Assembly: GCA_000004695.1 (NCBI GenBank) | Contig: CM000151.3 | Location: 352,001 to 416,000 of the forward strand | From: Dictyostelium discoideum | Taxonomy: Eukaryota | DNA length: 64,000 bases | Reading direction: 5' to 3' | In this document: piece by piece, positions 1 to 54,636 of the stretch | How positions within the stretch are numbered: position 1 is the stretch's first letter | Layout of the letters: the number at the start of each line of letters is the position of its first letter | Made by a program: the position numbers and the translations under genes | Notes under the pieces: generated by a model | The model's input: the letters and a program-made list of their open reading frames with translations, nothing else | What the model was told of the DNA's origin: nothing | Database searches by the model: none

Positions 1-2690
1 AAATCAATTAAAGAGATTGCTCAATCATTTTGTATATCAATAACTAAATTAAAAAAAGCAGAAATCATTGAAAAGATTAAATCAATAATCAAAAGAAAAA
101 GAGAATATGAAAAAGAACAAAAACAAAAACAAAATGTTAATTCATTTAATAAAATTATTAAATTGACAATTACAGATAATATTGAACCAATTGAAATATT
201 ATTTTGGAAATTATTTAGAAATAAAACAATTTATAAAAAGATATTCTCATTTATGGATAAACAATTCACAATAACATATGATTCAGTTTCATCAATAACA
301 AAACTAATAGATTCGAATCAATTTGGTATAATAAAAGAAAAAGTTATCAGAAATTGTAGATATTTATATTTCAATTCAAATCCATATTCAATTAATCTTA
401 CTCAAGATATGGAATATTTAGTGAAATTATTTTCAACGATTAATCAAGATGAAGATGAAGATGATGATGATGATGATTATTATAGATTCTATAGAAACTT
501 TTTTAAAATAGAGAATGATTATTACAAGTCATCTGGTGCTGTATCATGTGCACTAATTTTATCAAAGAAATTACAAGTTTTCAAATTATTTGTTAATGAA
601 TTCAATTATAAACCAACAAAAACAGATCTTTTGCATTCAATTTTTAATGGATCAAATAAATTCATTAAATATCTATTAGAATTAAATTCACCAAACTCAT
701 TTTTATTATTAGAAAAAGAGTGCACTGAAGTTATCAAAGATTTTAATCATTTCTATACTCATGGACTTGTTCAAAGAAATAGTTTTTACAAAGGATTGTT
801 ATGTTATTTAAATAGTATTGGTAATGATAATTATGATAGAAATCAGTACTTTGAATTATTAATAGATTGCGCTGATGAAGGAAATTATGAAATTAATGAA
901 AAATCAACATTAAAATCATTAATCACCACTGCTAGATTAATTTTAAAATTAAAAACACCGCCACCAGAACCGATAAAAGATGAAAAAGAAGATGAAGAAG
1001 AAAAAGAACTTTCAAAAAAGGTAATCAAACCAATTACAACAATTGATGAAATTGATAACTTTATAAAGAAAATTGATAAAGTTAATTTAAAATCATTATT
1101 AGATGATCCAATCATTTTCAATAATAATGAAATTAAAAATTTTATTAAGAAACTATTGATATTATCTCAACCGATATTTTATATCCTCCTAAGAATGAAG
1201 TTTGTAATTTAATTGAAATAGCATTTAGATTTGGAATTTATGAAATTTTAGAATCATATGTAACAAATAATAGAGAAATAAAGGAATATTTTGAAAGAGT
1301 ATTATCAAGAATCATTAAATATAAATGTAGAGATGATGATTTAAAAGTTTTATTTTCACATTGTTATGATAGAAATAAAAAGATTAAATTCATTGATCAA
1401 ATAGTTGGAAGAAACATTATACAAGCCGAACCTCAATTTCAGAGTTATTTCTTGTATTTACTTGTAATTCATAATGATATAGAGTTGGTAAAATATTATT
1501 CAAATAAAGTTGGTAATCACATACAAATACAGTATACCATATCATTACTTCCACCAACCTATTATATCGAATCAATAGAGACGTTAGAATTTTTATTTTA
1601 CAATCAATGTAATTACTTTAAAGATATTTTTTATAATGATTACATCAGTACATATTATAAAAATTTAGAATTATTAAAACATTTCGAATCATTATTCAAT
1701 AAATCAAAATCATTAAATCAATTAGGTAGTGGTAGTGTCAGTGGTAGTGATGGTAGTGATAGTAGTGATGGTAGTGGTAGTGGTAGTGGTAGTGGTATAC
1801 ATGCTTATAATGGCCTTGTTAGCTTTGTAATTGATGGATACTTTAAAGATAAAAGAAATTATTATTTGACATTTAAAAGAAATAATAATTATTCTGATTT
1901 TGTTAATCACTTTGCTTCAAATGCACAACTCTACTGTAATGATAAATTTCGTTTTGAACTTTTATTCACTACTTCAGATTTATCATTTAAACATTCAATC
2001 AACTTTCAAACATTAAGAAATTTAGTAATTAATGGACATGCTTTTGTGAAGGAGCCAAATAGTCAAACAGAATCTTATTCAAAGGAGCTTTTAAAATTTA
2101 TGGATTGGATATATACAAATTATAATAATGAATTGAAAAATGGTATATTTGGTTTCAAAACACAAAGATATAGATATCATTTACTCATTGCAATTGATAG
2201 CTTTGATTCCAACAACAACAACAACAGTATCGTTAATAAATACTTTAATGGTAATGAAGAAGAGAATGATGTTTATATTCAAAGATTAGGATTATTATTA
2301 AATGATGTCATCCTACTCACTCCATATTTATTTGAAATTAATAATTTGAAATTTTTAAATTGGTTCTTAACAATCATTCAAAAGTATCACAATTCTTCAT
2401 TATTAATTCCTACAGGTACATTTTATTATATTAAAAATATGGTTTTGATATTTGGGGATCATATTATACTTTATTCAAAATTACAAATACTTGAATACAT
2501 TCATCAAAATTTCAATTTCATTTTAAAGAAAGAATCAGATGGTGGAATATTAACTATTAAAGAATTAAAATCTTTTTTATTTTCATCACTTACCAGAGAT
2601 GCAGTTAAAATTTGTAAATTCCTTTTTCAATTCATTACCATTACAAAAAAAGAATTTGAAACATATTCAAATAAAAAATATAATAAATAA
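1..2690 (+). pseudogene. SAP-like-motif family paralog, 5' end outside window, frameshifted
   Basis: Frame 1 is open from nt 1 (KSIKEIAQSFCISITKLKKAEIIEKIKS...) to 1212. The homologous protein continues in frame 3 (IEIAFRFGIYEILESY...) to the stop at 2688-2690. Relative to intact paralog 6067..8898, about 80 nt are missing near 1150-1215, which causes the frame change. The gene has poly-Asn and an SGSGS repeat. Confidence 0.6.
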
Positions 2691-51903: not shown

Positions 51904-54636
51904 ATGAGTAACAACAGTAATAGTAATAATAGTAGTAATAATAATAATAATAATAATAATAATAATAATAATAATAATAATAATAATAATATAGTAATAA
52001 ATGAGGATGAAGATGGCAATGAATTAGAGAAAAAGGATTTAAAATCAGTTAAAGAGATTGCTCAATCATATGGTCTATCAACAAACAAATTAAATAAATT
52101 AGAAATCATTGAAAAGATTAAATCAGTTAAAAGAAAAAGAGATTATGAAGAAAAAGAAAATGTTAATTCGTTTAATAAAATTATTAAATTAACAATTACA
52201 GATAATATTGAACCTTCTGAAATACTATTTTGGAAATTATTTAGAAACATAGTAATTTATAAAAAGATATTCTCGTTTATGGATAAACGATTCTCAATTA
52301 ATTATGATTCAATGTCATCAATATCAAATCTTATAAACAATAATCAATTCAATATATTAAAAGAAAAAGTTTATAGAAATTGTAGATATTTACATTTAAC
52401 AACTCACGATTTGTATGATAAAATTAATGATATTTCTTGTTTGGTGAAACTATTTTCAAATATTAAAGATGACTATCAATTCTATAGAAACTTTTTTAAT
52501 AGTGATAATGGTCGTTATCTTTTAGCGACAAACATATCAACAGCATTAATTATATCAAAGAATTTAGAGATTTATAAATTATATATAACTGAATTCAATT
52601 ATGAGCCAACAGAAACAGATCTTATTTATTCAATTATAATAGGTTCACAAAAATTCATTAAATATATATTAGAATTAAATTCATCAAAATCATCGAAATC
52701 ACCATTTTATAATATTAATATTCAAAAATTTTATTTAAATGAATCATCATATTTTAATTTTCAAAAAGATAAAATATTTAAAGGATTACTATTTTATTTA
52801 AATAATAATAGTAAACAAGTATTTACAATAGATAATCTTTATGAATTTATTATTTATAGAAACGATAATGGATATGAAATTAATGAAAAATCAACATTAA
52901 AAACATTAATCACAATTTGTAAATTAATTTTAAAATTATATCCATCACCAACTATTGAAACAAAAACAAGCGAATTATTTAAATCGGTTCCAGATATTCA
53001 AGAAATTAATGGTTTTATTATTGAAAAAATGATTGATAAACAAATTTTAAAATCAAAATTAGATAATCCAATTTATTATAATAATAATAATAATAATAAC
53101 ATTGAAATTAAAAAGTTTATAATTAAATTATTAAATTTATATTATAAAACATTTATATATATACCAACAATTTTATATTTATGTTATTATGATTATGATG
53201 ATAATGAAAATTATCATTACTATTTCAAGCAATTTAATACTGACAAGGATGAACTGGAAATTGCATTTAGATTTGGAGATTTTAAAATTTTAGAACCTCG
53301 TGAAACTATTGATTATAAGAATATTTTACCAAGAGAATATAATTTCTGGGAAAAAGAGAATCATATAGTTTTATTCTCACATTGTTTTAATAAAGAGAAA
53401 AAGATTAAATTCATTGATCAATTGATTGAAAGAAATAATCAAAAGCCAGAATTGAATTTCGAAAATATTGTCTTCAATATGATTGTAATGAATGATGATA
53501 TTGAATTATTAAAATACTTTTCAAATAAAATTGGTTCAATTCTACCAGTCTATATTAATATTTCTGATTTTTCAATTTCTCCAACCTTTTTAATAGAATC
53601 AATTGAAATGTTGGACTATTTATTTAACAATCATAGAAAATACTTTATTGATAGAGAACTTATAAATAATTATAGTACATTTTTTAAAAATGTACAATTA
53701 TTACAACACTTTGAATCGTTATTATCAAAATTTAAACTTGACAATCCGTCGATCATTGAAAAGGATCCAATTCCTTTTATAAAAACTATAGATTTTAGTA
53801 GTATTTTATATTATAAAAAATACAAAGACTTTCTTAATTTTGCAAAACACTTTGCTACAAATTCACTATACAATAATGATGAATTAGATCGTATACAATT
53901 ATTAATATTATTAACTGATGCTGAATTATCATCTAAACAAATGGTCAACACAGAAACACTTGGAAATTTATTAATTTTTCCACACCACAAATCAAATCTA
54001 ATAGATCAAAGATCAAATAAACCATATTCAAAAGAATTTTTAAAATTAATTGAATGGTTATTTAATAACTACAATCATTTAATTGAAAAGGGTGGTCATC
54101 TATATCACAATAAAAAACACCATTACCATCTTCTTATTACACTAGATAGATTAGATCTCAACAACAACAACAACTATTGTTATAATAATATTGAAAAAAT
54201 TACTTACCTAATGGATATAGTAAATAATTCAACACCATTTTTATATGAAGCCAATAATTTTAAATTTTTAAATTGGTTTTTAACAATGATTGAAGATTAT
54301 CATTTTTCATCCAATTCAACAAATAATGATGAAAAATTAAAAATTAAAGCTTTAACAAAATCATTTCTTAACTATATTGTAGGCAATTCAAAATTACAAA
54401 TACTTGAATATGTTCATCAAAACTTTGGTTTCATTTTAAAAAAAGATTCAAATGGTGGAATATTACCAATTAAAGAATTAAAAGAATTCTTAATTTTATC
54501 AATTGGTTCATATTCAAATTTTAGTTCAATTAAAATTTCAGAATTTCTTTTTCAATTTATTACAATATCAAAAAGTGAATTTGAAAAGAAATCAAATAGA
54601 ATATCAAAACTAATCTTTGCAAATAAATTTAATTAA
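51904..54636 (+). CDS. intact family paralog (910 aa)
   Basis: ATG at 51904 starts MSNNSNSNNSSNNNN..., followed by the SAP-like motif and conserved blocks. It is the shortest intact member. Confidence 0.75.
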   Translation: MSNNSNSNNSSNNNNNNNNNNNNNNNNNNIVINEDEDGNELEKKDLKSVKEIAQSYGLSTNKLNKLEIIEKIKSVKRKRDYEEKENVNSFNKIIKLTITDNIEPSEILFWKLFRNIVIYKKIFSFMDKRFSINYDSMSSISNLINNNQFNILKEKVYRNCRYLHLTTHDLYDKINDISCLVKLFSNIKDDYQFYRNFFNSDNGRYLLATNISTALIISKNLEIYKLYITEFNYEPTETDLIYSIIIGSQKFIKYILELNSSKSSKSPFYNINIQKFYLNESSYFNFQKDKIFKGLLFYLNNNSKQVFTIDNLYEFIIYRNDNGYEINEKSTLKTLITICKLILKLYPSPTIETKTSELFKSVPDIQEINGFIIEKMIDKQILKSKLDNPIYYNNNNNNNIEIKKFIIKLLNLYYKTFIYIPTILYLCYYDYDDNENYHYYFKQFNTDKDELEIAFRFGDFKILEPRETIDYKNILPREYNFWEKENHIVLFSHCFNKEKKIKFIDQLIERNNQKPELNFENIVFNMIVMNDDIELLKYFSNKIGSILPVYINISDFSISPTFLIESIEMLDYLFNNHRKYFIDRELINNYSTFFKNVQLLQHFESLLSKFKLDNPSIIEKDPIPFIKTIDFSSILYYKKYKDFLNFAKHFATNSLYNNDELDRIQLLILLTDAELSSKQMVNTETLGNLLIFPHHKSNLIDQRSNKPYSKEFLKLIEWLFNNYNHLIEKGGHLYHNKKHHYHLLITLDRLDLNNNNNYCYNNIEKITYLMDIVNNSTPFLYEANNFKFLNWFLTMIEDYHFSSNSTNNDEKLKIKALTKSFLNYIVGNSKLQILEYVHQNFGFILKKDSNGGILPIKELKEFLILSIGSYSNFSSIKISEFLFQFITISKSEFEKKSNRISKLIFANKFN

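Follow-up and report, generated by a model that had tools for sequence, protein, structure and literature searches.

The window analysed here is the whole 64,000-nucleotide stretch of chromosome 2 of Dictyostelium discoideum AX4 introduced above (contig CM000151.3, positions 352,001 to 416,000). Its G+C content is about 20%, in a genome that is 78% A+T. Positions 1–54636 hold a tandem array of a single gene family, with all pieces on the + strand: five intact open reading frames (ORFs), four large decayed copies and two small remnants. The intact genes, each a single exon, are copy 3 (6067–8898; 943 aa, a 100% match to DDB_G0271438), copy 7 (37413–40448; 1011 aa from the first ATG), copy 8 (41193–44354; 1053 aa), copy 9 (44914–47967; 1017 aa) and copy 11 (51904–54636; 910 aa), the last member of the array. 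A sequence-only reading of the window had described eleven colinear copies in one orientation, five of them intact. When the five intact proteins were searched against the window by tblastn, nine unmistakable + strand copies were found where that reading had placed them, and the two remnants were recovered by blastn. The shared motifs that it quoted are all found in the window translations. The wide variation in linkers is visible there as well, in poly-Asn tracts of about 60 residues and in GSV and SG repeats.

The decayed copies have been damaged in different ways. Copy 1 (1–2690, +), whose 5′ end is cut by the window edge, is a pseudogene that tblastn follows in frame 1 over 1–1164 and in frame 3 over 1209–2669, with a frameshift and a small deletion at about 1164–1209. 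Copy 2 (3407–4586, +) is a pseudogene that has lost its C-terminus and two large internal stretches; it keeps only residues 10–176, 529–609 and 688–834, in three frames (tblastn, 3410–4586). Copy 4 is split into a left half (13069–14283, +; residues 228–609 by tblastn) and a right half (18128–19153, +; residues 617–943). It is also 5′-truncated, with its first ~227 codons missing and frameshifts at the start of the left half. Copy 10 (49358–51113, +) is a pseudogene with high-scoring segments in frames 2, 1, 3, 2 and 3 (tblastn, 49358/49496–51113). It lacks the HeH (helix-extended-helix) region and the C-terminal third, carries several frameshifts and has its ILFWKLFRN motif duplicated.

The two small remnants were identified at the nucleotide level, and neither reaches significance at the protein level. 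The 5′ remnant (24341–24516, +), comprising an upstream region and about 35 codons, is 80% identical over 179 nt to 37379–37550 at the 5′ end of copy 7 (blastn, E 1e-37). Its counterpart in a diverged strain (ACTFIW, described below) is better preserved and reads EENNETEKKDLKSIKEI. The C-terminal-block remnant (25539–25670, +) is 82–85% identical to copies 7 and 9 over 123–133 nt (blastn, E 1e-30 to 1e-33), and its translation reads LERLSSLI..VNRLTPFSYE. Since the two remnants may be the opposite ends of a single gutted copy, the number of copies is ten or eleven.

The lesions are not assembly errors, because an independent assembly carries them exactly. GCA_054883475.1 (locus-tag prefix ACTFIT; locus L004), which we infer to be the AX2 genome of Holland et al. 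2025 (PMC12745789), is 99.4–99.7% identical to the window. It contains, letter for letter, the copy 1 frameshift zone, copies 2 and 10 in full and copy 4 in both its halves. This rules out the assembly artefacts that the sequence-only reading had named as a danger to its pseudogene calls.

The family proteins share one domain order, which, jointly with the mode of evolution described below, we hold with high confidence: a variable poly-Asn head, an HeH domain, a KRKREYEEE stretch, a conserved 'LFWKLFRN...LKEKVYRN' module and, over about 800 residues, degenerate α-helical repeats of an ankyrin-like kind. The N-terminal motif, which had been called SAP-like, is by its sequence matches and predicted fold an HeH domain of the Rho_N/SAP type. 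Pfam Rho_N (PF07498) matches 13 of 20 family members, with a best E of 6.5e-9, and the family protein P0004 carries a precomputed PF07498 match. The five copies in the AX4 window fall below the Pfam threshold (E 4.5e-4 to 0.12, one without a match). SAP (PF02037) is found at the same position in D. purpureum relatives with E-values of 7e-5 and 1.4e-4, at 22.8 and 21.8 bits just under the cutoff of 23.9. A PDB search with a profile of the motif ranks the Ku70 SAP domain (1JJR) and the N-terminus of Rho (3L0O) as its two best matches. AlphaFold 2 (AF2) models predict the HeH fold, with helices at 21–24 and 29–38, a loop at 39–47 and a helix at 48–73, and a predicted local distance difference test score (pLDDT) of 77–80 for the block. 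Given the Rho_N matches, the near-threshold SAP matches and the Ku70 and Rho structures, 'SAP-like' holds at the level of the HeH clan. The basic-acidic KRKREYEEE stretch that follows resembles, in sequence, a nuclear localisation signal.

The body of the protein is predicted to be all α-helical, with a pLDDT of 69.5 that rises to 77.5 with a deeper alignment (predicted template modelling score 0.74). Foldseek found no global fold match in the PDB (E > 0.006, TM-score at most 0.19), and whole-protein phmmer against the PDB returned chance-level matches only. A more distant relative is informative. The family profile aligns by hhalign with the Polysphondylium violaceum protein P0076 at a probability of 95.9% (E 5e-9; residues 95–251 against 3–151). 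P0076 shares the module in the form LFWKVFRNK, and Pfam Ank_2 covers its residues 100–176 (E 5.3e-11). In the family itself, the Pfam ankyrin models give a single Ank_3 match at E 0.2 among 20 members, and hhalign against a consensus ankyrin sequence gives a probability of 0.07%. A distant ankyrin homolog and the predicted fold thus lead us to view the body as an α-solenoid of a degenerate, ankyrin-like kind, with repeats that no longer match ankyrin models themselves. The family thus appears to be related to dictyostelid ankyrin-repeat proteins, a link that the sequence-only reading had overlooked. A word-indexed homolog search with the module profile, in which only 187 candidates were scored, was uninformative, returning two D. 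discoideum fragments.

A diverged strain provides a direct view of how the array changes. Two adjoining loci (L001 and L003) of GCA_054859355.1, with locus-tag prefix ACTFIW, cover the homologous array. ACTFIW is a tropical isolate, and such isolates are diverged from AX4 genome-wide (PMC12745789). Neighbour-joining trees of two blocks, together with blastn, identify six AX4/ACTFIW orthologous pairs: copies 1, 3, 4, 7, 8 and 10. The counterpart of copy 1 (L001 6206–8748) is disrupted too. The orthologs of copies 3, 7 and 8 (the last being P0015) are 92%, 91% and 91% identical in DNA, with ratios of nonsynonymous to synonymous divergence (ω) of 0.39, 0.21 and 0.46. Two copies that are decayed in AX4 are in better condition in ACTFIW: the ortholog of copy 4 is an intact 960-aa ORF, and that of copy 10 is a 795-aa ORF that keeps the HeH domain. 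For copy 9 (44914), trees and blastn revealed no ACTFIW ortholog in the syntenic position, and ACTFIW has its own unpaired genes of 914 and 944 aa. Inside the ACTFIW array there is also a 138-aa fragment of a ribonucleotide reductase small subunit (Ribonuc_red_sm; L001 4464–4880, −) that has no counterpart in the AX4 window.

Birth and death of copies, as had been proposed from the AX4 sequence, is supported because six pairs are kept while each strain holds unpaired copies. The array evolves by duplication, loss, frameshift, deletion and the arrival of mobile DNA, and it is this mode of evolution that shares our high confidence with the domain order given above.

We examined selection in the same set of genes. 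Between AX4 and ACTFIW orthologs, maximum likelihood (ML) gives nonsynonymous divergence (dN) of 0.029–0.046, synonymous divergence (dS) of 0.078–0.139 and ω of 0.21–0.46. Among AX4 paralogs, YN00 gives ω of 0.34–0.52 at dS of 0.43–1.06. NG86 dN/dS values of 0.7–1.1 were discounted in favour of YN00 and ML, because NG86 underestimates dS at this base composition. Along the protein, ω is 0.16–0.18 in the HeH and LFWKLFRN modules and rises to 0.5–0.6 in residues 490–615 and 655–780; it exceeds 1 in no region scanned. The dS of about 0.1 at this locus is not special, because ACTFIW is diverged from AX4 as a whole. Family proteins differ by 7–12% between the strains, against 2–3% for the adjacent GNAT acetyltransferase (97–98% identical). 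The description of the family as fast-evolving is thus right insofar as it evolves faster than its GNAT neighbour, and it needs qualification in that ω of about 0.2–0.5 reflects moderate purifying selection, with no positive selection seen. The intact copies are real genes under this moderate constraint.

Erosion of the array by mobile elements, the remaining dynamic claim of the sequence-only reading, is supported, with an insertion in copy 4 proven by the junctions, the terminal inverted repeats and an empty site. A DNA transposon of 3844 bp (14284–18127, −) splits the copy. Its 243-nt terminal inverted repeats (14284–14526 and 17885–18127) begin TGTTGTAGGG and end CCCTACAACA, and a 5-bp TTATT target-site duplication is read directly at the junctions on both flanks. 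Its − strand ORFs match Pfam Integrase_H2C2 (E 4.8e-9) and the integrase core rve_3 (E 5.8e-4). Once the element and one TTATT are taken out, an uninterrupted ORF of 673 codons is recovered. In GCA_054883475.1 the insert is absent, and the precise empty site, ...CGAATTATTATTGGATAT..., has a single TTATT. The insertion is very recent, because a near-identical strain still has the empty site; in the ~41 kb compared, it (14284–18127 in the window, L004 18113–18118 in GCA_054883475.1) is the sole large difference between the two assemblies. Inverted terminal repeats, a brief duplication of the target and an ORF for a retroviral-type integrase are published features of Tdd-4, and by these features we take the element to be Tdd-4-type. 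The insertion might be useful for marking the lineage of laboratory strains derived from AX3/AX4. A second DNA element, a Tc1/mariner-type transposase remnant (12427–12852, +; Pfam DDE_3, E 5.3e-15, annotated DDE_3 in L004), sits in ~3.6 kb of foreign DNA that adjoins the 5′ truncation of copy 4.

The array is also interrupted by a gap at a tRNA-Val(AAC) gene (34412–34486, −; ARAGORN) that splits the family into left and right sub-arrays. This tRNA gene is the target that attracted retroelements to the locus. On one side, an internally deleted long terminal repeat (LTR) retrotransposon of 2640 bp (34515–37154, −) begins 28 bp upstream of the tRNA gene. Its 268-bp LTRs (34515–34782 and 36887–37154) are 100% identical to each other. 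Its ORF encodes a CX2CX4HX4C gag zinc knuckle, an aspartyl protease (Asp_protease_2, E 8.4e-11) and an integrase C-terminal SH3 domain (SH3_Tf2-1), and the element is considered internally deleted because it lacks reverse transcriptase (RT), RNase H and the integrase core. Downstream of the tRNA gene lie two non-LTR retrotransposon copies (25800–33730, −; Pfam RVT_1, E 4.9e-34, and Exo_endo_phos). The full-length copy has ORF1 at 32873–33730 and ORF2, with apurinic endonuclease (APE) and RT domains, at 30297–32873 and continuing at 29550–30278. The second copy (25800–27305) is 5′-truncated, and the paralogous ORF tails of the two are visible in the translations. In Dictyostelium, DGLT-A inserts about 13–33 bp upstream of tRNA genes and TRE3 about 100 bp downstream (PMC5006619). 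By position alone, the LTR element is of the DGLT-A type and the non-LTR elements, which lie on the downstream side, are of the TRE3 type.

Both retroelement blocks are absent from ACTFIW, because its tRNA region runs straight between flanking sequences that they separate in AX4: a stretch matching 23147–25538 is followed by 315 bp, the tRNA region (98% identical to 34401–34507) and then directly the copy 7 ortholog. In AX4 the right end of the LTR element lies ~260 bp upstream of the copy 7 start codon (37154–37413), and the N-terminus of copy 7 differs from that of its ACTFIW ortholog (MKKLIFLENKDE versus MNIDKNYNEKINNNFLENKDE). Given this spacing and the N-terminal difference, the LTR insertion may have changed the promoter or start of copy 7.

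The family appears, on sequence searches, to be restricted to dictyostelids. A profile search of 1.84 billion representative proteins gave 65 matches, and the 20 for which the source name was looked up come from D. discoideum, D. cf. discoideum, D. citrinum, D. firmibasis, D. dimigraforme, D. purpureum and P. violaceum. All are dictyostelid, in agreement with the lineage-specific origin suggested earlier. At least one intact copy is transcribed during multicellular development and depends on Mef2A. In 16-h structures, DDB_G0271438 has 262 reads in the wild type and 4 in a mef2A mutant, and quantitative reverse-transcription PCR shows almost complete Mef2A dependence throughout development (Galardi-Castilla et al. 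2013, PMC3640940). Matches to the MEF2 site YTAWWWWTAR (122, against 93 expected) are scattered throughout the AT-rich DNA, so that our site scan gives no evidence either way on direct control by Mef2A. A search of the searchable literature for the family and the neighbouring gene IDs found nothing beyond the Mef2A paper. As far as that literature shows, the array, the domain model and the turnover described here are new; the genes themselves were already annotated as hypothetical, with an automatic Rho_N label.

Several other genes lie in or next to the array. The gene after copy 11 is the GNAT acetyltransferase DDB_G0271470 (54925–55452, −), with which the array ends on the right; ACTFIW has this gene as a tandem duplicate (ACTFIW_011165/011166). 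Beyond it, a flavin amine-oxidase gene occurs as a tandem duplicate (56535–58595 and 61615–63672) with 96.5% DNA identity over ~2.06 kb, and its ORF fragments match Pfam Amino_oxidase. Between copy 3 and the truncated copy 4, in AX4-specific DNA, there is a 268-aa ORF (9837–10643, −) with Thr/Ser-rich tracts, Cys/His-containing stretches and no Pfam match; GCA_054883475.1 annotates a 476-aa gene at this site (L004 13082–15129). Between the family remnants there are two small paralogous ORFs (23472–23858, − and 24889–25284, −) that share the start MGTDYIQLNEENSS. A Pfam scan of one of them found no match, and the counterparts of the two are called genes in ACTFIW (L003 3634–4218 and 4995–5513).

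What the family does can be proposed from its anatomy. The HeH domain, the adjacent KRKR motif and the long variable repeats lead us to suggest tentatively that the proteins are nuclear, DNA- or chromatin-tethered adaptors or scaffolds, a role that we think plausible while rating it somewhat below an even chance. In this mechanism, a family protein would enter the nucleus via the basic motif, and its HeH domain would dock it on AT-rich DNA or chromatin. The variable ankyrin-like solenoid would then serve as a protein-binding surface, so that the protein acts as a chromatin-tethered adaptor or scaffold, and paralogs would differ mainly in their binding partners. Taken as a whole, anatomy, dynamics and mechanism together form the best explanation of the locus, and one that is probably correct.

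The same modular anatomy could be read instead as that of ubiquitin-ligase substrate adaptors, with EILFWKLFRNKxIYKKIFSF as a degenerate F-box and the ankyrin-like repeats binding substrate, as in poxvirus ANK/PRANC proteins or FEM1. Comparison of the module with the Skp2 F-box by hhalign gives a probability of 0.1%, no PDB sequence matches it at E up to 10, the Pfam F-box has no match in the 20 + 10 members scanned, and in the AF2 model the module runs directly into the repeat stack. We reject the F-box assignment and regard a ubiquitin-ligase role as very improbable. It might also be that the family is dying and that all or most of its copies no longer function, their long ORFs surviving only because the duplications are recent. 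Of the eleven pieces, six have already decayed; among the five intact ORFs, four have no exact sequence in the protein collection, and the expression evidence concerns one copy only. The paralogs are nevertheless old (YN00 dS 0.4–1.0), and five of them keep ORFs of 910–1053 codons where a composition of 78% A+T makes stops easy. Moreover, intact orthologous ORFs are kept in a strain at dS of about 0.1, ω is 0.21–0.46 between orthologs and as low as 0.16 in the N-terminal modules, and the family is present in at least six Dictyostelium species. That the array is a graveyard is thus hardly credible.

A further alternative concerns the force behind the turnover. The family could act in conflict or recognition, for instance by discriminating kin, controlling cheaters or warding off nuclear parasites or mobile DNA, with diversifying selection rather than relaxed constraint driving copy turnover and solenoid divergence. 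Such a role would fit the variation of copy number and content between strains, the 7–12% protein divergence against 2–3% for GNAT, the location of the highest ω (0.5–0.6) in two mid- to C-terminal solenoid segments and the expression of DDB_G0271438 at the social stage. Tandem fast-turnover families such as tgr also exist in the same genomes (PMC12745789). Against it, no region has ω above 1 and whole-gene ω is 0.2–0.5; the translations read contain no signal peptide or transmembrane segment and do contain nuclear-type motifs; and the dS of about 0.1 follows from the divergence of ACTFIW as a whole (PMC12745789) and is not locus-specific. We consider a conflict role unlikely. The chromatin-adaptor proposal and the conflict role could be combined, the array then being a strain-variable repertoire of chromatin-tethered adaptors in social-stage conflict (with cheaters, nuclear parasites or the surrounding transposons) whose solenoid diversity is maintained by selection. 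This is a speculative extension, and we give it slightly less credence still; if true, the repertoire would be a nuclear analogue of tgr or NLR-type clusters.

These results do not overturn current understanding. All parts of the system are of known kinds (an HeH domain, an ankyrin-type solenoid, tandem birth and death, tRNA-targeted retroelements and a Tdd-type transposon), the gene-family evolution is fairly ordinary, and the work is of use mainly for annotation and as a worked example. It provides a concrete domain model for 'hypothetical proteins' of a model organism and ties them to a wider dictyostelid ankyrin-type family. It also records, with exact breakpoints, the remodelling of a tandem family within a compact genome by a recent transposon, tRNA-targeted retroelements and copy gain and loss. 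Because one member is almost fully Mef2A-dependent, the family proteins are candidate nuclear factors in prespore/prestalk differentiation.

Parts of the family protein resemble several known systems. Its N-terminal domain is like SAP, Rho_N and LEM domains of the HeH type in having, over about 35 residues, a helix, an extended loop and a helix with the pattern L..L...A...G/I....K.ELI. Unlike in Rho or Ku, the HeH domain heads a ~900-aa helical-repeat protein and is not joined to an OB-fold/ATPase or to Ku. Its DNA binding is putative, and in most of the D. discoideum copies it stays under the Pfam gathering thresholds. With the dictyostelid 'LFWKVFRNK' ankyrin proteins (P. violaceum CYY_003819, D. 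discoideum DDB_G0290323) the family has in common the N-terminal module and the helical repeats behind it. Canonical Ank_2, Ank_4 and Ank_3 matches are present in the P. violaceum protein, and the 'LFWKVFRNK' proteins lack both the HeH domain and the KRKREYEEE stretch.

In animals, ANKLE1 and ANKLE2 combine ankyrin repeats with a LEM domain and have a nuclear or nuclear-envelope role; LEM domains bind BAF. The likeness lies in the pairing of an HeH-fold chromatin or DNA tether with an ankyrin-type scaffold, the nuclear role of our family being a putative one. There is no detectable sequence homology, and the named matches of our profile search are all dictyostelid. The domain order is reversed, with the HeH domain first, and the family has neither the GIY-YIG nuclease nor a transmembrane segment. 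In its genomic organisation, the array resembles the tgr clusters (tgrB/C locus) of these genomes, which also stand in tandem, vary from strain to strain and include many pseudogenes and gene fragments (PMC12745789). The products of the tgr genes are extremely polymorphic TIG-repeat proteins, secreted or in the membrane, whereas the family described here has nuclear-type motifs and moderate ω, and it retains six clear one-to-one orthologs between diverged strains.

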